A stretch of 24,000 nucleotides of DNA from Acidimicrobiaceae bacterium (GCA_905182565.1 CAJJCB010000010.1:20074-44073); one strand, 5' to 3'. Shown: positions 6,088 to 24,000, counted from the stretch's first letter. Made by a program: numbers and translations. Notes: generated from the sequence alone by a model not told the origin.

Positions 6088-7200
6088 TCAAAGTTGTGGA
6101 CAAACGAGACTTTTCCCCTGAGTACTCATTTGGGTGTACTTTTTCATCTGGTTCATATCTAATATTGACTCTAAAGAGAGCGTGTCGCTGTATGAACTAG
6201 CGAAGGTAGTGGCTAATTCCGTTGCTACGCGTTGACGCAACTCGCTACTTCGTCCCGGACCGACTTTTGCTAAGAAATTCGGGAGAAGCCAACCAGCGAC
6301 ACCCCATGCCATCCCGTAGCTTCTTTTGAGGAGAGTGGGTCCTCGGTCTAGTCCACCATATATGTACATCTGCTTATGAGTTGTGGAACCGTACCGGCTG
6401 TACTCGCCACCGTTTGAACTCGCTGCTATCTCCATGGCGTGGAGGATTTCTGTAGCTAAATCTCCGCCGCCGACAGCATCGAAACCGATTGTTGCTCCGG
6501 TTTTCGTGCACGCATCAACCAAATCCTTGCGAAAATTAGGCGAACTTGAATTTACGACGTATGACGCTCCTTGGTTTTGTAAGAGTTTGACATGCTCTTC
6601 GCGCCGCACAATGTTGACCAACTCTATTCCATCATCAACGCATATCCGGTTGAGCATCTGACCTAAGTTCGAAGCCGCTGCTGTGTGAACTATCGCCGAG
6701 TGGCCCTCAAGCCGCATGGATTCTGTCATACCTAAGGCCGTAAGCGGATTCACAAAACATGATGCGGCATCAAGAGCTTTGGTGCCTTCTTCGAGAACTA
6801 AGCAATCCCGTGCTTTCACTACGCGATGGGTGGCATACATTCCACCGGCTAGAACGGCGACAACCTTCCCATGAAGCGCTCTGGCTTGCTCTCCGCCCCC
6901 AACCTCGATAACAACGCCAGATCCTTCATTTCCCACCGGCATAGGCTGGTCCACGCGACCAGCGAGACCGTCTATTGCTCCGTCAGGAAGCGATAGGGCA
7001 AGCCCATTTCCCGACGCTGAGACAGTTGATACATCGGCACCGGCAAGAAGGACACCTAGGTCGCTTGGATTGATTGGTGATGCCCCTACTTCAATGAGTA
7101 CTTCATCTGGTCCCAGATCTGGCACCTGGAACTCTTCAATACTTAAATGGACTTTTGATCCTGAAGTAACGGTCGAGATCAGTCGTTTGCCATTAGACAT
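6088..7200 (-). CDS. MDR-superfamily NAD(P)H-dependent oxidoreductase (quinone oxidoreductase / enoyl reductase-like; no zinc-binding Cys/His ligand motifs recognised)
   Basis: It has a GroES-like N-terminal domain (DEVLIEVGASPINPSDLG) and a Rossmann region (IVHTAAASNLGQML). Length is about 370 aa. I prefer the ATG at 7200 (MSNGKRL) to the TTG at 7209. Confidence 0.85.
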   Translation of the reverse strand: MSNGKRLISTVTSGSKVHLSIEEFQVPDLGPDEVLIEVGASPINPSDLGVLLAGADVSTVSASGNGLALSLPDGAIDGLAGRVDQPMPVGNEGSGVVIEVGGGEQARALHGKVVAVLAGGMYATHRVVKARDCLVLEEGTKALDAASCFVNPLTALGMTESMRLEGHSAIVHTAAASNLGQMLNRICVDDGIELVNIVRREEHVKLLQNQGASYVVNSSSPNFRKDLVDACTKTGATIGFDAVGGGDLATEILHAMEIAASSNGGEYSRYGSTTHKQMYIYGGLDRGPTLLKRSYGMAWGVAGWLLPNFLAKVGPGRSSELRQRVATELATTFASSYSDTLSLESILDMNQMKKYTQMSTQGKSLVCPQL

Positions 7201-7279
7201 ATGCACCAATGTTCTTTCTCAAGTTGGAGAACGATTTACTAAATTGGAAGGGAAACCCTATGGTTGAGGCTAGTACCTG

Positions 7280-7308
7280 TTGACGCCCTCTCGTTCGAAC
7301 CATACAAC
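7280..7308 (+). promoter_or_regulatory. Candidate sigma70-type promoter reading toward the small ORF and heliorhodopsin
   Basis: TTGACG (7280-7285), a 17-nt spacer, then TACAAC (7303-7308). The -10 element is imperfect and lacks the terminal T. This is purely a sequence-pattern call. Confidence 0.25.
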
Positions 7309-7372
7309 AGACAGCTCTGCCCAAGTAGCAGGGCAAGAGCGTTAGCTATGTCCCGATGTGACTATTGATGCA

Positions 7373-7558
7373 ATGAAACTAAAAACTTCCCTGCACCCAT
7401 CACACTCCTCTAAGTTGCCAAATTTGGCTTTGGCTTTGGCTTTGGCTTTGGCTATGGCTATGGCTAATGAGCACCGAGCAACGCTTGAGGCGGGAATCAA
7501 TTCCTTTATGGCTCGACACCAGGCAACCTTTATCGGAGGAACTCTCGATGAGCTGTAA
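7373..7558 (+). CDS. Small ORF (61 aa) with a signal-peptide-like N-terminus whose hydrophobic core is encoded by the hexanucleotide repeat
   Basis: MKLKTSLHPSHSSKLPN-LALALALALAMAMA-NEHRATLEAG... shows a basic n-region, an (LA)n h-region and an A-x-A (AMA) motif. It is on the same strand as heliorhodopsin and ends 93 nt upstream of it. There is no SD and I know of no homolog, so it could be non-coding. Confidence 0.3.
   Translation: MKLKTSLHPSHSSKLPNLALALALALAMAMANEHRATLEAGINSFMARHQATFIGGTLDEL
7424..7465. repeat. Hexanucleotide microsatellite: (TTGGCT)x5 followed by (ATGGCT)x2
   Basis: Read directly from the sequence. There are seven contiguous 6-bp units, five identical and two with a single T>A change. 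Confidence 0.95.
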
Positions 7559-7651
7559 GCAGCAACTCGAACACCATTTTAGGTTTGCTCATTTTGTGAT
7601 CGTAATCTAAGACGGTTTTTGGAAACTGCGAGCTCCCGGTAGCCTGACAGA

Positions 7652-8410
7652 ATGGACACACAAATCGTGAAGCTTCGTAAACTGAACGTATTCGCCGGGT
7701 GTCTTCACCTTGCGTCGTTTATCGCAATTTTAGTGCTAGCGGACGACAGCTCTCTTCCCGTAGTGGCCACCTACCTTACCGAGGCCCCAGGAACTGGAAA
7801 CTTCTCAGATCCAGTAAACCTATTCAATCTGAATATCAGCTATATGGTGGCTGGGTTCTTAGCGCTCTCAGCTTTTTTCCATTTCTTTGTAAGCTCACCA
7901 CTAATTTTCCCCAAATATGTTGAGGGCCTGAGCAATCACATTAACAAGTACCGGTGGGTTGAGTACTCACTGTCGTCTTCCCTCATGATTGTCGTCATTC
8001 TCCAACTAAATGGCACCGCCGATTACATCGCCCTACTCGCGATCTTTGGCGTCAATGTCAGCATGATCTTGTTTGGTTGGCTCCAAGAGCGTTACGCCAC
8101 ACCAGGCGACGGCGACATGCTCCCTTTCTGGTTCGGATGCATCGCCGGAGCGATCCCTTGGATTGCCGTGACCCTAAGCATCATCTCGCTGAAAGGCCCT
8201 GCTGAAGCCACAGTTCCCGGCTTTGTCTATGGAATAGTGATCTCGTTGTTCATTCTCTTCAACTGCTTCGCAATTATTCAGTGGAAACAGTATCGGGCAA
8301 GGGGAAGATGGTCTGACTACTTCTACGGTGAACGTCGCTACATCCTGCTCAGTTTCATTGCGAAGTCTGTGCTCGCTTGGCAGGTATTTGCCGGAGCACT
8401 TGCGTCTTGA
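7652..8410 (+). CDS. Heliorhodopsin (HeR), a 7-TM retinal protein with inverted topology
   Basis: It aligns end to end with my recollection of heliorhodopsin 48C12. Shared blocks are YRWVEYSLSSS (counterion Glu104, codon 7961-7963), LSAFFHFFVSS (His77), CLHLASF (His19), AIFGVNVSMILFGWLQERY, MLPFWFGCIAGAIPWI, VPGFVYGIVISLF and IAKSVLAWQVF (Schiff-base Lys238, codon 8363-8365). Length is 252 aa. Confidence 0.95.
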   Translation: MDTQIVKLRKLNVFAGCLHLASFIAILVLADDSSLPVVATYLTEAPGTGNFSDPVNLFNLNISYMVAGFLALSAFFHFFVSSPLIFPKYVEGLSNHINKYRWVEYSLSSSLMIVVILQLNGTADYIALLAIFGVNVSMILFGWLQERYATPGDGDMLPFWFGCIAGAIPWIAVTLSIISLKGPAEATVPGFVYGIVISLFILFNCFAIIQWKQYRARGRWSDYFYGERRYILLSFIAKSVLAWQVFAGALAS

Positions 8411-8470
8411 CTGCTGGAAAGCTTGCAAATCGTCGCTTGTAGGAAACGCTGCATTGCTCCCGTTAGAATT

Positions 8471-8902
8471 TCAACCCAGCGTTTGATTAACTAAAACCGC
8501 CCCAAGCGGTATTCTGATGCTCCACGCTGCAGTACGGATCCAATTGACCTTAATCAGCTTTGGAATCAATTCAGATTCCCCACGTCCAATTTTCGCGTGC
8601 AATGGCACCGCCTGGAACAGGGTTACAGAAACCGCAACTACCAGGAAACAAAAGCTAATGAAAGCTATGGGAAGCGCATCGCTGGGCACGACTAAAAATG
8701 CTAAGGCGCTTGAAGCCGCCTCGATGACCATTACTGGGCCAACCACTCTAATTATCAAATTTTGGTGACGACGAGATACTTCAATAATTGACTGAACCGG
8801 GACCTCACCCAGGAGCGGATAATGAACGACTTGTATGACCCACAATACTCCCGCCATGAAAGCTGCGGAGGTAACGGATACAAGTGCTATTAGCGATTCC
8901 AT
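8471..8902 (-). CDS. DUF1772-like (anthrone-oxygenase-like) 4-TM membrane protein
   Basis: 143 aa with four hydrophobic helices. The C-terminal NWIRTAAWSIR resembles the W-x-x-x-N/W-x-x-RT motif I recall for DUF1772. It converges on the heliorhodopsin 3' end with a 60-bp gap. Confidence 0.55.
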   Translation of the reverse strand: MESLIALVSVTSAAFMAGVLWVIQVVHYPLLGEVPVQSIIEVSRRHQNLIIRVVGPVMVIEAASSALAFLVVPSDALPIAFISFCFLVVAVSVTLFQAVPLHAKIGRGESELIPKLIKVNWIRTAAWSIRIPLGAVLVNQTLG

Positions 8903-8960
8903 CGTGTGTCAACAGGTTGAGTGGCGCACTCGACACCATATGTGAATAGACGCAAACGGT

Positions 8961-9113
8961 TCATTCAGGGCTAGACCCATTGTTGGGAATAATTTGAGGC
9001 GATGAGCTTTTACTATCGGCTTCGCGCCCATTCGCGTAAGCAGCAAGAAGTACAGCCCAAATAGTTAACCCGAATACTGCTGCTCCAATGGACATCAATA
9101 CTGTTTCGTTCAT
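8961..9113 (-). CDS. Tiny single-TM protein (50 aa)
   Basis: The sequence is MNETVLMSIGAAVFGLTIWAVLLAAYANG followed by a polar tail. Its ATG overlaps the TGA of the upstream small ORF (ATGA, a 4-bp overlap), suggesting translational coupling. The longer alternative (start at 9215) would overlap the neighbour by about 100 nt in another frame. Confidence 0.4.
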   Translation of the reverse strand: MNETVLMSIGAAVFGLTIWAVLLAAYANGREADSKSSSPQIIPNNGSSPE

Positions 9114-9313
9114 TGCGAGCTTCGATCGTTCGTCAATACTAGATTGCCTAATGAAAGAATAGACGGAACCCAAAGACCGACAAAGATTCCCTGGTCTTTC
9201 GAACCGGTGTACCAAAGGGTTACTGACAGAACAAGAGACAGAAAAGCTGCCACCATGAACAAGATTTTTGGCTTAGAAAAAACAACTTGTGTCGACTCAA
9301 GATTCGAGAACAC
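9110..9313 (-). CDS. Small 2-TM membrane protein (67 aa)
   Basis: GTG at 9313 is preceded by GAGGAG (9326-9321) with a 7-nt spacer. The two hydrophobic helices are ILFMVAAFLSLVLSVTLW and IFVGLWVPSILSLGNLVL. It is the first gene of an apparent three-gene minus-strand operon. Confidence 0.45.
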   Translation of the reverse strand: MFSNLESTQVVFSKPKILFMVAAFLSLVLSVTLWYTGSKDQGIFVGLWVPSILSLGNLVLTNDRSSQ

Positions 9314-9620
9314 GAAACAACTCCTCAATTAGTGCTAAATGAAATACCATAGCAAACTATACCGACGCTCAGGCTATATCAACTCATTTACCAAATAAGG
9401 CACTTTTGTGAGGCCCGCCGATAGCGCCGGTAATTCGCTGGTGTGTTGTCAGTAGTGATCTTTGTGAAGAGGCTTCGAGCCCGTTTTGACCGAATGCTCA
9501 AATGTCCGGATGACAAAGAAACAGCGTTGTTCTGAATTCATCACCAATGGGTTAGTTATTTGTGTAAGGCGTTCCGCATTAACTTGGATCATCACGTATT
9601 GTTTAAGCCGAGGTGCCCCA

Positions 9621-10766: not shown

Positions 10767-11591
10767 ATGGTCATCCAAAATGTTGATACAAATGTTAGTG
10801 GATACCAAAATGAAGGTTGGTGGTCTCCCATAGACGTTCTTCGACCTGATGAAGTAGCGCAATGTCGAGAAGGCCTAGAAACCTACGAAGCATCAGTTGG
10901 ACACCCGATCGAATTTCCTGAAAAATCAAAATCCTACCTCTTGTTCGAATGGGCAGATTATTTAGTGCATCACCCTAAAGTACTTGATGCAGTTGAAGCA
11001 GTAATTGGACCTGACATCCTTGTTTATCACTCAACGACATGGATTAAAGAAGCGCAAACTCCTGCATTCGTGCACTGGCATCAAGACGGAACATATTTCT
11101 TTCTAGAACCTCATCTCCATGTAACCGCTTGGATCGCACTATCAGAATGTCCGCCCGAAGCAGGCTGTGTGAGGGTTGTCTCGGGAAGTCATAAACTCGG
11201 ACAGTTTGACCACAACGATGATCCAGGCCAATGGAATATGATTAAACGAGGTCAGGGAATCTTCGACCAGTTTGATGATGATGCGGGTGTGCTTATGCCA
11301 CTCCATGCTGGGGAAATGTCATTGCATCACACTGACGTTGTTCACTCTTCAGCAGGAAATGAAACTGACCACCGACGCGTTGGCATCGGCATAAGCTACA
11401 TCCCCACAAGCGTCCGTCCGGTCGGAGAACCCACTCCTAGCGCTCTACTCGTTCGAGGTAAAGACGACTACGGGAATTTCATCGAGGAGCAACGCCTAGG
11501 GGTGGAACAGTCACCTGAAGCTATAGCTGCTCACAATGAAGCCAACACTAGGTTTAGGGCGCGCCAAGATTTAGGCGCAAATATGTCGTAA
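10767..11591 (+). CDS. Phytanoyl-CoA dioxygenase (PhyH)-family Fe(II)/2-oxoglutarate oxygenase, paralog 2
   Basis: The H-x-D motif lies in FVHWHQDGTYF, the distal His in VVHSSAGN, and the Arg region in HRRVGIGISY. A strong SD (GAAGGAG) sits about 6 nt upstream of the ATG. Confidence 0.9.
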   Translation: MVIQNVDTNVSGYQNEGWWSPIDVLRPDEVAQCREGLETYEASVGHPIEFPEKSKSYLLFEWADYLVHHPKVLDAVEAVIGPDILVYHSTTWIKEAQTPAFVHWHQDGTYFFLEPHLHVTAWIALSECPPEAGCVRVVSGSHKLGQFDHNDDPGQWNMIKRGQGIFDQFDDDAGVLMPLHAGEMSLHHTDVVHSSAGNETDHRRVGIGISYIPTSVRPVGEPTPSALLVRGKDDYGNFIEEQRLGVEQSPEAIAAHNEANTRFRARQDLGANMS

Positions 11592-15458: not shown

Positions 15459-17810
15459 TTAGTACAGAGCTTCAGCAGCTGCGAGGTCTGCGATCTGATC
15501 TCCGTTATAGCCCAACATATCGCTTAACACTTCAAAGGTATGCTCACCGATTGGTGGCCCGCCCCATAAGGTTTCAGAAGGCGTTCTACTCAATTGATAA
15601 TGTGAACCTTCAACGATTGTTTCACCAGCATATGTCTGAGGAACACGGCGAAAGTGATTTCGGTGAGCGAGCTGAGGGTCAGCAACCGCATCAGCTGAGT
15701 CAACAACGACATGGGCTGCGATATCATGGCTCTGAAGCATCTCTTGAAGCTCGAATCGGTCTTGGGTGATCGTCCACCTTCCAATTACCAGGTCATCTAG
15801 GCCCTCAACTCCTATGAGCTGACAGAGGCGATCTTCGGCTTCTTCGCTCTGGCATACTATCGCTACCCATTTGTCATTGCCTTGAGTCGGATATACCCCA
15901 TGGATTGAGTACCGGTCGCTAGCATTACCGGCTCGGGTACCAACTCTTTCATTTACTATCTGGTCTAATAAAGCCGGGCCAAGTAGATGCAAGGCTGACT
16001 CGTGCTGGCTTAGATCGATATAACAACCTTCACCCGTTCGACGTTTCTGATCTAGAGCTGAGACAAGAGCTGTTACTGCGAAACGTGGGCCGGTGTAGTC
16101 GGTGTACGCCAGGAATGGACCCGTAGGTGGGCGATCTGGCCAGCCAGTGATTTCGTAAAACCCGCTCAAGGCACCTGCTAGATTTCCAAAACCGGGATAC
16201 ATATTCATTGGTCCGGTTTGCCCCATGAGACAACTAGACAACATCACGATCTCTGGCTTTCGCTTCTTGACAGATACGTAGTCGAAACCCCAATTCGCCA
16301 TTGCCTTGGGCGTAAATGATTCGACAATTACGTCAGCCCAATCGACCAGGTCCCAGATGACCTGCCGAGCGGCCTCCTTTGAAAGGTCAAGGCTCATCAA
16401 ATATTTGCCTGCATTTATCGAGTGGTACTGAGCCGTATTGTCTGGGTGAGTTACATCGTTGACAAATGGGCCAGCATTTCGAATTACGTCCATTCGCCCC
16501 TCTGATTCAATTCTCACGACTGTTGCGCCGTGATCAGCAAGACTTCGCGTGGCCATTGGGGCTGCTACGGCCCAGGTAAAATCGAGAACTTTAACTCCTG
16601 CTAGGGGAGCACCTGTTGGTGGTGTCCCCGCAGGCTGCGAGCATGCTGGTTTCCGCCGTAAATCGTCGAGTATCTCTTTTGTGTGTTGACCAAGTTTGGG
16701 AGGCGCCCCAAGAATTTTTAGCGGTGTGCTCGCTTTAGCGAAACGACCTGGGAATTTGTACCCAAGCTGATCGACTTCTTCAAAAAACTCTCGAGACTTT
16801 AGATGGTCAGACTCAACTATGTCTTTGGTAGTTGCTACAGGAGCGATGAGTAGACGACGTTCGCTGTTCGCCGACATCAGCTCTTCTTTGGATTTAGTAG
16901 CGGTGAGAGCGGCTATAGCATCTTGAGCACGGTACAGAGCAAGGGGATCAGCTTGCCCTGAAAAAATCATCATAAAAAAATCGACCCAGTTCTGGTCACG
17001 AGTTTCTTTGTCGCAATACCCTTCCTCGTATACCCAATTCATCAGTCGCTGGCTATAAGGCCCAAGCATCGAGCCGAACATGAAGGTGATTGACACGAAC
17101 CCGTCAGTTGCCGGGTAGACAGTCCTAAGCACGTACTCTCCGGCTTTAATGCCTCCCCCTGCGCGAGCGACTGGGGGAGCGCCAACAGCAGTTGTCATGA
17201 GATAAGTTTGTGTGCACTGGGTCACTGCTTGTTGCGCCGATACATCGATATGTTGCCCGAAACCTGAAGCGCTGCGCTCATAAAGGGCTATTGTCGTCGC
17301 TTCAGCAGCTTCCAAAGCTCCATGCAACCATCCTTGAGGAACTGCGCCGACTTGGACGGGAGCTCGATCTGGATCACCTGTAAGACCTAGCTGCCCGCCG
17401 CTGGCTAACAAAGTCAAATCTGTCGCCAACCAGTCATGCTTTGGGCCTGATGCCCCGAAAGGGGAAAGCGTAACAGTCAGAAGCGAAGGGTTTTTCTTAC
17501 GTAAGGCTGACAGGTCAAGATTTTTGAAAGCGCCACAATCAAGAATCACATCTGCTGTGCTAGCTAAAACTTCTATTTCTGGGATACCTCCAATTACAGA
17601 TTTCTTACCGCGATTCCAAGCCCAATGAGTGAGTGAACCCTCGACATTTGGCGAATCGTCGGCAAAAGGACCTAGGTGTCTAGCACGCGTTCCTTCCGAA
17701 GGTTCTATGGCAATTACTTCTGCTCCGAGCTGAGCCAATAAAAGCCCAGTCAAATTAGACCTTTCGTCAGTGAGGTCCAGTATTCGATACGGAGAAAGCA
17801 TGAAGTTCAT
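15459..17810 (-). CDS. Tandem-fused family III (CaiB/BaiF-type) CoA-transferase, two complete domains in one 783-aa polypeptide
   Basis: Domain 1 runs from YRILDLTDERSNLTGLLLAQLGAEVIAIEP to PPKLGQHTKEILDDL. A Pro-rich linker RRKPACSQPAGTPPTGAPLAG follows. Domain 2 runs from VKVLDFTWAVAAPMATRSLADHGATVVRIES to GPPIGEHTFEVLSDMLGY. A normal family III enzyme is about 400 aa. Confidence 0.9.
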   Translation of the reverse strand: MNFMLSPYRILDLTDERSNLTGLLLAQLGAEVIAIEPSEGTRARHLGPFADDSPNVEGSLTHWAWNRGKKSVIGGIPEIEVLASTADVILDCGAFKNLDLSALRKKNPSLLTVTLSPFGASGPKHDWLATDLTLLASGGQLGLTGDPDRAPVQVGAVPQGWLHGALEAAEATTIALYERSASGFGQHIDVSAQQAVTQCTQTYLMTTAVGAPPVARAGGGIKAGEYVLRTVYPATDGFVSITFMFGSMLGPYSQRLMNWVYEEGYCDKETRDQNWVDFFMMIFSGQADPLALYRAQDAIAALTATKSKEELMSANSERRLLIAPVATTKDIVESDHLKSREFFEEVDQLGYKFPGRFAKASTPLKILGAPPKLGQHTKEILDDLRRKPACSQPAGTPPTGAPLAGVKVLDFTWAVAAPMATRSLADHGATVVRIESEGRMDVIRNAGPFVNDVTHPDNTAQYHSINAGKYLMSLDLSKEAARQVIWDLVDWADVIVESFTPKAMANWGFDYVSVKKRKPEIVMLSSCLMGQTGPMNMYPGFGNLAGALSGFYEITGWPDRPPTGPFLAYTDYTGPRFAVTALVSALDQKRRTGEGCYIDLSQHESALHLLGPALLDQIVNERVGTRAGNASDRYSIHGVYPTQGNDKWVAIVCQSEEAEDRLCQLIGVEGLDDLVIGRWTITQDRFELQEMLQSHDIAAHVVVDSADAVADPQLAHRNHFRRVPQTYAGETIVEGSHYQLSRTPSETLWGGPPIGEHTFEVLSDMLGYNGDQIADLAAAEALY

Positions 17811-22548: not shown

Positions 22549-24000
22549 TTATACTTTTTCGTAGACTTCTTTACGCGTGAATTCAGCGAGCGTTTGACGC
22601 ACCGAAGAGGCAATCGAAACGCCCCCTAATAGTACGAATAGGGACCCGACACCAGAAACGAGATTTGGGTCTGCGACTCGGGTGATGCTTGCAATCCAAC
22701 CAACAGCAAGTGCAAATAATCCTAAACCCAGACCACCAACGATGGTACACCAACGATATAGGTAATCTTCTTCTCGAGAGAAGAGGCCGGAGGCAGGCAA
22801 CGCACATGCGAGGGCTATGAGCCCAAGGATAAGAGCAATCCAGCCGAGCCCTGCTCCTTGACGAGTGAAGCCATCGAAGATCACGTCGCCAGTTCGTTGT
22901 GCTTGAGAGATCATTGCCGTGTATTCAGCAGCTAGACTTCCTGCTTTTCCTAGATCTCCAGCGGCTTCTGCCTGCCTACTGAGCAACTCTACGGCATCTA
23001 ATCGTGCCTGTAGATCCGGCCCGATTACCGATTCTGCTCTGGTGTCGAACGTCCATCCTGAATAGCCGCCCATGACTATGAAAAGTAAACCAAAGGTTAG
23101 CGAAATAAGACGTCCAGAACGAACTCCCGAAGGCAGCGGACGTGTAGCCCCCATGGGAGCTTGCCATAGCCATAAGATGCTGCCCAGCGCCATCAAAAAC
23201 GCGCTTACGACAGCAATATATGCACCTAAGCCCCTCGTGAGTATTGTGACGGCGTCGGGCTGGTTCGTCAGGAGATTAGTAACGGCTAGTACTAGAGCGG
23301 TAAGACTAGCTAAAACAGCTCCGTCCGGACCTAGCCATCTATTCCCCCGTCCTGGGTATCTGATGGTTGAATAAACGCTACTTGCGCCCACAACAGCGCA
23401 GACAATAAGAAGAATCCCGGTCCACGATCCCCCCGATGCCTCAATTCCGTTAAAGCTTTGGCCGAGTAAGTTAGTGTCAGCGCTGCGAGCATATGCCGAT
23501 ACAAGACCCGAGTTTTTTGTCCATGGCAACAGCAGAGCGAACAGGATTCCTATGATCCCAATTGTGGTCAGCATGATTGCTTTGCGCTCTTTGATTTCTA
23601 ATGGAGCGTAGACAGGGGTTGTGTCATCAGGAGAGGAGAAGTCCTCAGAGGCTCTCGCAGGTATTAACAACTCAGGAGTTTTCGTGTTTTGCCACGCTGC
23701 AATAATTCGGGGAGCGAGTCCTTTATTTTTTGTGCCATTGGGTTGAGTGAGTCGGTCCAGAACTACTGCGACTATAAAGAAAGCGAGACCACCTGAGCCC
23801 GCTAGTGCAATATCTTGATTAGCTATAGCTCGGTATAGAAGTCTGCCTAATCCTCCAGCACCCATAATGGCAGCGATTCCAAGCATCGAGATAGCTAGCA
23901 ATAGTGTCTGGTTGATACCGGTTAAAATAGCTGCTCTCGCTAGTGGAAGCTGGACGTCTGTTAGGACCCGTCTCTCAGACGCTCCGTATGCTCTCGAGGC
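22549..24000 (-). CDS. opuAB: OpuAB/ProW-type ABC permease (5' end outside the window) fused in frame to a roughly 395-aa, 8-TM C-terminal extension
   Basis: The minus-strand frame is open from base 24000. It reads ASRAYGASERRVLTDVQLPLARAAILTGINQTLLLAISMLGIAAIMGAGGLGRLLYRAIANQDIALAGSGGLAFFIVAVVLDRLTQ, which is the canonical C-terminal end of ProW/OpuAB. It then continues without a stop through 8 more hydrophobic helices to 22549. The 'M' at 23901 in the ORF track is an internal TTG, not the start. Confidence 0.85.
   Translation of the reverse strand, partial: ASRAYGASERRVLTDVQLPLARAAILTGINQTLLLAISMLGIAAIMGAGGLGRLLYRAIANQDIALAGSGGLAFFIVAVVLDRLTQPNGTKNKGLAPRIIAAWQNTKTPELLIPARASEDFSSPDDTTPVYAPLEIKERKAIMLTTIGIIGILFALLLPWTKNSGLVSAYARSADTNLLGQSFNGIEASGGSWTGILLIVCAVVGASSVYSTIRYPGRGNRWLGPDGAVLASLTALVLAVTNLLTNQPDAVTILTRGLGAYIAVVSAFLMALGSILWLWQAPMGATRPLPSGVRSGRLISLTFGLLFIVMGGYSGWTFDTRAESVIGPDLQARLDAVELLSRQAEAAGDLGKAGSLAAEYTAMISQAQRTGDVIFDGFTRQGAGLGWIALILGLIALACALPASGLFSREEDYLYRWCTIVGGLGLGLFALAVGWIASITRVADPNLVSGVGSLFVLLGGVSIASSVRQTLAEFTRKEVYEKV

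Follow-up and report, generated by a model that had tools for sequence, protein, structure and literature searches.

Several described systems offer a comparison for a heliorhodopsin (HeR) gene. The reference protein, 48C12, comes from a freshwater actinobacterial fosmid, and its chain has been solved (PDB 6su3, 6uh3). Among genomic associations, a HeR-photolyase pairing has been described for TfHeR (PMC9769723), 'photolyase', 'MerR' and 'SDR' are among the ten published groups of HeR neighbors (Cho et al., 2024, PMC11109279), and Bulzu et al. (2021, PMC8612252) associate actinobacterial HeRs with glutaredoxin and oxidative stress. Light-inducible regulons of the LitR/CarH type, whose regulator joins a MerR-type helix-turn-helix (HTH) to a B12-binding domain, are a further point of reference. 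Here, we analyzed a HeR gene and its surroundings in a 24,000-nucleotide stretch of DNA from an Acidimicrobiaceae bacterium (GCA_905182565.1 CAJJCB010000010.1:20074-44073), referred to below as the window, in which positions are counted from the first letter. The gene belongs to a marine member of the Acidimicrobiia (Ca. Poriferisodalaceae), and loci from other assemblies carry numbers with the prefix L. The reading that we favor, and that we consider reasonably probable, is that the gene encodes a functional canonical HeR photosensor that is transcribed alone and lies among reshuffled pieces of a light and photo-oxidative-stress neighborhood.

By homology, the 252-aa product is a full-length canonical heliorhodopsin of the 48C12 type. 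The open reading frame (ORF) matches the Pfam family PF18761 (Heliorhodopsin) along the entire profile (1-242/242, E = 1e-91, 307 bits, the cut-off being 26.7) and also passes the NCBIfam equivalog NF038020, 'heliorhodopsin HeR' (311 bits, the cut-off being 100), so that the profile search bears out the family call of the original prediction. In a phmmer search against PDB chains, the top three matches were the 48C12 entries 6su3, 6uh3 and 9ljj (E ~6e-87), with TaHeR next (E ~2e-49). The window HeR is 55.7% identical to 48C12 over 246 aa. The four residues that had been named as hallmarks, H19, H77, E104 and K238, indeed align with H23, H80, E107 and K241 of 48C12, and the equivalents of N16, S76, Y92, N101, R104, W105, N138, M141, E149, Q213, E230 and S237 are identical as well. 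Thus the window protein shares with 48C12 its length class, the Schiff-base lysine in the last helix (K241, here K238), the single counterion glutamate (E104) and the proton-accepting histidine pair (H19 and H77), and differs by one extra residue in the first extracellular segment (a one-residue gap in 48C12 at G48). In 59 full-length HeRs of the Acidimicrobiia, these four residues and about 15 more 48C12 pocket positions vary little or not at all; the lysine, the glutamate and the histidine pair are themselves invariant among these relatives. Crude hydropathy analysis yielded ten hydrophobic windows with overlaps, which merge into about six regions, and did not separate seven helices, the number that the near-gapless alignment with the solved chain of 48C12 would imply. 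By the same homology, the protein would bind all-trans retinal at K238, with E104 as the counterion. Because the dN/dS of the gene is 0.04 relative to the congeners L001 and L002 (at dS ~1.1) and the functional residues are kept, we conclude from these comparisons that this is a genuine and intact HeR gene on which purifying selection acts strongly.

The gene probably has its own promoter, which would abut the start codon and give a leaderless mRNA. A -10-like hexamer, TAGCCT (7640-7645), lies 6 nt ahead of the HeR ATG, within a 46-nt segment (Table 1) in which about 37 of the 46 columns are invariant among the window, L001 and L002 although dS in the coding region is ~1.1; the segment is thus much better conserved across the three congeners than synonymous sites are. 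Of 55 loci compared among the HeR start regions of L001-L067, 37 have a TAnnnT hexamer at exactly 6-7 nt ahead of the start, with a background of 1.9% at random positions and 15% at other ORF starts, and it persists even where the preceding gene ends 23 bp upstream. This suggests that Acidimicrobiia HeRs in general are made from leaderless mRNAs with promoters of their own. The earlier description of the gene as seemingly monocistronic is supported, given that the next gene is convergent and its stop codon lies 60 bp from that of HeR, the -10-like hexamer precedes the ATG and the upstream ORF is a remnant. A generic scan of 7150-9550 for sigma-70 promoters and terminators returned nothing beyond the shuffled expectation, and Rfam matched no RNA, such as a cobalamin riboswitch, within 7000-9600. 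The 'small upstream ORF' of the original prediction proved not to be an intact gene: in the congeners an intact 130-aa ORF lies upstream of HeR (L001 1805-2197; its sole Pfam match is a weak one to the NTF2-like DUF6841, E 0.05), and DNA alignment with L001 and L002 shows that a deletion of ~330 bp in the window removed the C-terminal half, leaving an N-terminal remnant of 66 aa. The hexanucleotide repeat inside this remnant differs in length between strains, and the assembly of strain L070 has a scaffold gap of Ns at this point.

We next consider whether the genomic context of this HeR is distinctive, as the original prediction had proposed for the purpose of inferring HeR function. Every window ORF that was not nested in a larger gene was scanned with Pfam and NCBIfam. 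As predicted, the window contains no glutamine synthetase, photolyase, blh/BCD, crt or RPE65 gene by these scans, and no published partner (glutamine synthetase, photolyase or ABC transporter) adjoins HeR on the same strand; the sole ABC-transporter parts (OpuAC and a ProW-like end) are ~13 kb away. This lack is the usual state and not a special context, because no more than 38.6% of HeR genes have a neighbor with which co-transcription is predicted (Cho et al., 2024, PMC11109279), and, according to a preprint, only 1 of 381 HeR-only genomes holds the full retinal pathway (Bulzu et al., bioRxiv 10.1101/2021.02.01.429150). The absence of partner genes nearby is therefore the default for HeRs. 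We then compared the locus with 67 genome loci encoding HeR relatives (46-92% identity, almost all Acidimicrobiia, 777 kb in total) by tblastn of 22 window proteins. The MDR protein and the two PhyH-family dioxygenases (PhyH1 and PhyH2) are found together with HeR in same-species contigs and otherwise just in L001 and L002, which belong to the same genus (HeR 91-92% identical) and whose contigs stop short of the positions of the aldehyde dehydrogenase (ALDH) and of genes farther out. The more distant window genes that were tested lie next to HeR only in same-species contigs, and MDR, PhyH and ALDH neighbors have no counterpart at the other 65 HeR loci. Because they stand beside HeR only within the genus, the MDR, both PhyH genes, the ALDH and most other neighbors are lineage-specific bystanders that are uninformative on HeR function. 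The claim of a distinct context thus mostly fails: the MDR, PhyH and ALDH genes drop out, while the operon that had been labeled DUF1772 does recur near HeR.

That operon lies on the minus strand, convergent with HeR, and encodes three small membrane proteins in the order mem72-mem50-mem143 (67, 50 and 143 aa). mem72 probably starts at the GTG at 9313, which would give its 67 aa, with a Shine-Dalgarno-like GAGGAG (9321-9326) 7 nt before it; its identity with the leading gene of the homologous operons is 71-73% in L073-L081 and 54% in L087 and L007. The ATG of mem50 overlaps the stop codon of the gene upstream (ATGA), and mem50 is conserved in L001, L002, L073-L081, L007 and L087. The earlier label 'DUF1772 membrane-protein operon' needs a correction. 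A membrane-protein operon is present, and mem143 resembles DUF1772/Anthrone_oxy (PF08592) in its ~140 aa and four transmembrane helices, but mem143 itself has no Pfam or NCBIfam match above threshold and no PF08592 match even at E<=10. Its relatives match PF08592 weakly in 8 of 23 cases (best E 4e-4), so that mem143 is at most a distant, unclassified relative of that family. The mem143 family is large: a search at E<=1e-3 gave at least 7371 homologues, and the best 120 are all without Pfam annotation. Its alignment holds 18 invariant columns, including W20, Q23, H26, Y27, P28, M57, E60, T93, P99, H101, N119, R122, T123, W126 and R129. The AF2 model of mem143 is a confident four-helix transmembrane bundle (pLDDT 95.8), for which a fold search against the PDB found no comparable structure, only generic four-helix bundles (best E 0.47). 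Judged by helix position in this model, most of the invariant polar residues would lie near one membrane face, which suggests a binding or catalytic site.

Ahead of the operon, in the window as in the sister species, stand a conserved promoter and an operator-like quasi-palindrome, TTAGCACTAA, the latter placed between a -10-like TATAGT and the Shine-Dalgarno sequence. The element is conserved in the window, L001, L002 and L073-L081 (e.g. L073 8929-8938), is present in two copies in L076 (7511-7537) and L079 (7525-7550), and recurs before the superoxide dismutase (SOD) or sigma-factor gene of the light-stress island described below (L076 8922-8931). It is thus a candidate operator for a regulator. 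In L087, the LitR-mem72 intergenic region resembles it only loosely. We rejected the idea that HeR and the mem operon are jointly regulated by way of this element, as the motif never precedes HeR.

The position of mem143 relatives, by contrast with that of the bystanders, is recurrent. In L001 and L002, mem143 is convergent with HeR at a distance of 76 bp. Relatives lie 0.9-2.3 kb from HeR in L007, L008 and L009 (the order in L008 being HeR, DUF2071, a 139-aa ORF, SDR, mem143), and 6-7 kb from HeR in L026 and L040, beside a DPRP photolyase-related gene and a 1-Cys peroxiredoxin. In this HeR-centered sample, mem143 therefore occurs in 7 of 67 loci, from about three lineages, where ~0.3 would be expected at one copy per 2.5-Mb genome, a background frequency that is assumed. 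The light-stress genes (mem143, DPRP, DUF2071, photolyase and epimerase/DUF2867) are confined to HeRs at least 72% identical to that of the window. One of these, the HeR of L006 (81% identical), lies 1.3 kb from a photolyase and is immediately preceded by an epimerase/DUF2867 gene.

Reverse look-ups, which started from mem143 homologues instead of HeR, extended this picture. Three sister Poriferisodalaceae species (L073-L081) keep the three-gene mem operon, with identities of 71-73%, 46-60% and 54-61%, and have no HeR within 8 kb of it. There, the operon heads an island in which SRPBCC, sigma-70-type factor, DNA photolyase and acyltransferase genes follow, joined in two of the three species by SOD and a THAP4 heme-binding gene, and it is convergent with DUF1295, epimerase/DUF2867 and a LitR/CarH-like regulator (MerR-HTH plus B12-binding). 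The PhyH and SRPBCC genes that flank the operon in these species are not orthologues of the window's PhyH and SRPBCC genes (no match at E<1e-3). In one high-GC actinobacterial lineage, a mem143-like gene immediately precedes HeR in the same orientation: the two overlap by 4 nt in L087 and are 55 bp apart in L091, where HeR is full-length and 46% identical to that of the window. The L087 operon diverges from a LitR-like gene and holds mem72-like and mem50-like genes, two glycosyltransferases, DUF2071 and an amino oxidase, with an RPE65 carotenoid oxygenase near it. The HeR of L087 (7447-7890; also L088) is truncated after the third transmembrane helix (TM3), leaving 147 aa without the Schiff-base lysine, and the amino-oxidase gene follows directly. 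An ADH-family gene beside LitR in L087 was considered as a homologue of the window MDR and gave no match. Another mem143-family gene (L083 5837-7498; L155) is divergent from a type-1 rhodopsin. Within 5 kb of that rhodopsin-mem143 pair we also observed blh, a Fapy-DNA glycosylase and a photolyase fragment. One further mem143 homologue lies behind a pair of extracytoplasmic function (ECF) sigma and zf-HC2 anti-sigma factors, and three were found in unrelated contexts.

A metagenome scan with a mem143 profile yielded 80 loci (662 kb in total). Near mem143, we counted a DPRP photolyase-related gene, an amino oxidase and an epimerase/DUF2867 gene in 8 loci each, an ECF sigma or anti-sigma factor in 6, photolyase and DUF2071 in 4 each, a LitR-like regulator in 3, and a type-1 rhodopsin plus blh in 1. 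These light and stress genes usually lie within a few hundred bp of mem143. On our reading, the mem143 family is primarily part of light and photo-oxidative-stress gene neighborhoods, and the HeR subclade of the window tends to sit in or near them. The literature offered nothing that links HeR with LitR, or DUF1772 with light responses, and a DUF1772-like family is not among the ten published HeR neighbor groups (Cho et al., 2024, PMC11109279).

Together, these observations suggest how the locus relates to the described systems. The HeR would most likely be a slow-cycling, non-transporting photosensor that modulates other proteins and not a pump, a mechanism that would follow from homology to 48C12 and from the literature. 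It may stand beside the remnant of a light-stress island, with the mem operon as the link to the light and oxidative-stress genes of the sister species, and its function in this lineage would most plausibly fall within the already proposed sphere of photoprotection and photolyase (PMC9769723, PMC8612252, PMC11109279). Because the recurrent mem operon ties the locus to the proposed photolyase, MerR-type regulator and oxidative-stress contexts, we regard the HeR context as a reshuffled version of a known association and not as a new one. As in the HeR-photolyase system of TfHeR (PMC9769723) and in the 'photolyase', 'MerR' and 'SDR' groups (PMC11109279), close HeR relatives carry such genes within a few kb, and the mem operon of the window belongs to a comparable island in the sister species; unlike in those systems, the window itself has no photolyase or MerR-type gene, and its HeR is in no operon with neighbors. 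With the association reported by Bulzu et al. (2021, PMC8612252), the shared theme is photo-oxidative stress, but the window has no glutaredoxin and the link runs through other genes. A LitR/CarH-type regulator (MerR-HTH plus B12-binding) lies beside the homologous operon in L073-L081 and is divergent from it in L087, whereas Pfam scans found none in the window. The mem operon is the only neighbor with recurrent linkage, and it is widespread and unannotated, which makes it a modest but concrete lead: if it is truly light-regulated, it would be a concrete and cheap candidate for what heliorhodopsins signal to.

Several points weigh against this favored reading. The mem operon and HeR are convergent, so the two are not co-transcribed, and TTAGCACTAA is not found upstream of HeR at any locus. 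The 24-kb window contains no LitR, photolyase, SOD or sigma-factor gene. All cases of HeR near mem143, taken together, collapse to about four independent lineages, and the enrichment given above relies on the assumption of one mem143 copy per genome. Finally, the link between mem143 and HeR is only occasional, because HeR was found at 0 of the 80 metagenome mem143-family loci, and it could merely reflect both genes drifting within light-related neighborhoods.

The same data bear on a stronger alternative, in which mem143, perhaps with the two mini membrane proteins, would be a direct physical partner or effector of HeR, forming a light-regulated membrane module comparable to the OcHeR-OmrDE ABC transporter. 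Such a partnership is possible, and the data do not require it. The same-strand tandems of L087 and L091, which occur with a HeR only 46% identical to ours, the adjacency in the window clade, the proximity in two further lineages, and the clustering of the 18 invariant polar or aromatic mem143 residues near one membrane face, as in an enzyme or binding site, all point in this direction. They have to be set against the absence of HeR from the metagenome mem143 loci, which lowered our estimate of direct partnership, the sister species that keep the operon without an adjacent HeR, the 60 of 67 HeR loci without mem143, the convergent orientation in the window, and the truncation after TM3 of the HeR beside the mem143-like gene in L087. 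On balance, we consider a direct partnership unlikely. We are equally doubtful of the wider proposal that the mem143 family, usually placed after two mini membrane proteins, is both an unrecognized part of LitR/CarH- or ECF-controlled light and photo-oxidative-stress regulons and the direct membrane partner or effector of HeR in several actinobacterial lineages.

48C12 is not known to show transport. The window HeR could nevertheless be a transporter or a light-harvesting device instead of a sensor, either of the proton-transporting viral type or as part of a carotenoid-antenna phototrophy, considering that the viral V2HeR3 transports protons and that, according to a 2025 preprint, HeRs may have a conserved site for a carotenoid antenna. 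At 56% identity to 48C12, with every checked pocket residue shared, the protein appears to have no sequence feature that separates it from the non-transporting bacterial HeRs, and we judge a transport or antenna role to be rather improbable. Still less can be said for a tie between HeR and the adjacent MDR, PhyH or ALDH, for instance through retinoid or lipid oxidation that supplies the chromophore or is controlled by it. These genes are close to HeR in the window, their arrangement is kept in same-species contigs and in two congeneric metagenome-assembled genomes (MAGs), and Bulzu et al. included the speculation that dehydrogenases near HeR could be retinol dehydrogenases; against this, outside the genus no such gene accompanies HeR at any of the 65 loci, the PhyH beside the sister-species operon is no orthologue of the window's PhyH genes, the MDR scores far under the cut-offs of the quinone-oxidoreductase models, and PhyH2 is split in strain L070. 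Synteny has thus already largely refuted this idea, and we regard it as very unlikely. The notion that the gene is a decaying, functionless relic in an organism without retinal, prompted by the lack of a retinal-synthesis gene in the window and by the truncated upstream gene, has next to no probability, since it is refuted by the selection signal (dN/dS 0.04 at dS ~1.1, functional residues intact) and stands against an identical HeR protein in many ocean samples.

The HeR itself adds nothing new, being a canonical member of a catalogued marine Acidimicrobiia clade of which a near-identical form is already annotated as HeR. The exact protein is public in NCBI MAGs of Candidatus Poriferisodalaceae (Acidimicrobiia), on contigs of up to 667 kb, the longest carrying it as MFQ3315945.1, under the name 'hypothetical protein', and its 90%-identity cluster includes a member named 'heliorhodopsin HeR'. 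Bulzu et al. had earlier catalogued marine Acidimicrobiia HeRs as phylogenetic clusters. We found the protein in 74 blocks of an assembly collection, including Tara Oceans samples, with the same neighbors every time, and its host is an abundant marine actinobacterium.

Table 1. Features of the HeR locus, with positions in the 24,000-nucleotide window.
Feature	Position	Strand	Basis or remark
66-aa ORF, remnant of a 130-aa gene	7358..7558	+	DNA alignment with L001 and L002
Hexanucleotide tandem repeat (TTTGGC) x7.2 inside the 66-aa remnant	7423..7465	.	Tandem Repeats Finder score 72
Conserved 46-nt segment, putative HeR promoter of a leaderless transcript	7606..7651	+	Conservation with L001 and L002; -10-like hexamer
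Heliorhodopsin (HeR) gene	7652..8410	+	252-aa ORF, ATG start; Pfam, NCBIfam and PDB-chain matches
mem143, 143 aa, four transmembrane helices	8471..8902	-	Convergent with HeR; large unannotated family
mem50, 50-aa single-pass membrane protein	8961..9113	-	Gene calls in L068-L072
mem72, two-helix membrane protein, first operon gene	9110..9313	-	Mechanical ORF to 9328
Operator-like quasi-palindrome TTAGCACTAA (TTAGnnCTAA)	9329..9338	-	Just upstream of the mem-operon Shine-Dalgarno sequence

Unbiased clustering of all flanking ORFs at the 67 HeR loci recovered recurrent neighbors of other kinds. A gene of the fatty-acid-desaturase family lies within ~1 kb of HeR in 24 loci, mostly from freshwater and with more distant relatives; a GH1 glycosidase lies directly upstream on the same strand in 18, mostly of freshwater Acidimicrobiia; and glutaredoxin lies directly downstream in 15 freshwater Acidimicrobiia loci, which re-finds the association published in Bulzu et al. 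(2021). A nitroreductase is near HeR in 9 loci, and DoxX, DUF2889 and SRPBCC genes are recurrent too. Loci of the GH1/glutaredoxin type (L015-L024, L030-L032, L042-L044 and others) belong to Ilumatobacteraceae and unclassified Actinomycetota MAGs. None of the desaturase, GH1, glutaredoxin, nitroreductase, DoxX or DUF2889 neighbors is present in the window. Among the GH1, glutaredoxin and desaturase links, the available portions of the published texts discuss only that to glutaredoxin.

The window gene products begin with an FG-GAP protein, an alpha/beta hydrolase, an EamA transporter and the MDR/quinone-oxidoreductase-like protein, which is closest to quinone-oxidoreductase NCBIfam models and scores far under their cut-offs, followed by HeR. 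After HeR come the three small membrane proteins on the opposite strand, the two PhyH-family dioxygenases, DUF4864, the aldehyde dehydrogenase and GNAT, and farther on a weak SRPBCC match, a double CoA-transferase III, an MFS transporter and a GcvT-like protein. The window also encodes OpuAC and a membrane protein whose N-terminal stretch is ProW-like. The second PhyH-family gene (10767-11591) carries the JGI label 'non-heme Fe2+, alpha-ketoglutarate-dependent halogenase', its best NCBIfam match, 'chlorinating enzyme', is sub-threshold, and in strain L070 it is broken into two ORFs (L070 13116-13940). At 15459-17810, a 783-aa protein consists of two CoA-transferase family III units fused in tandem. 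Beside the OpuAC binding protein, a 450-aa multi-pass membrane ORF (22549-23901) has no Pfam domain, and its similarity to ProW/choline ABC permeases, at their C-terminal end, is limited to the first ~60 residues; this ORF may be a mis-called start or a fusion.

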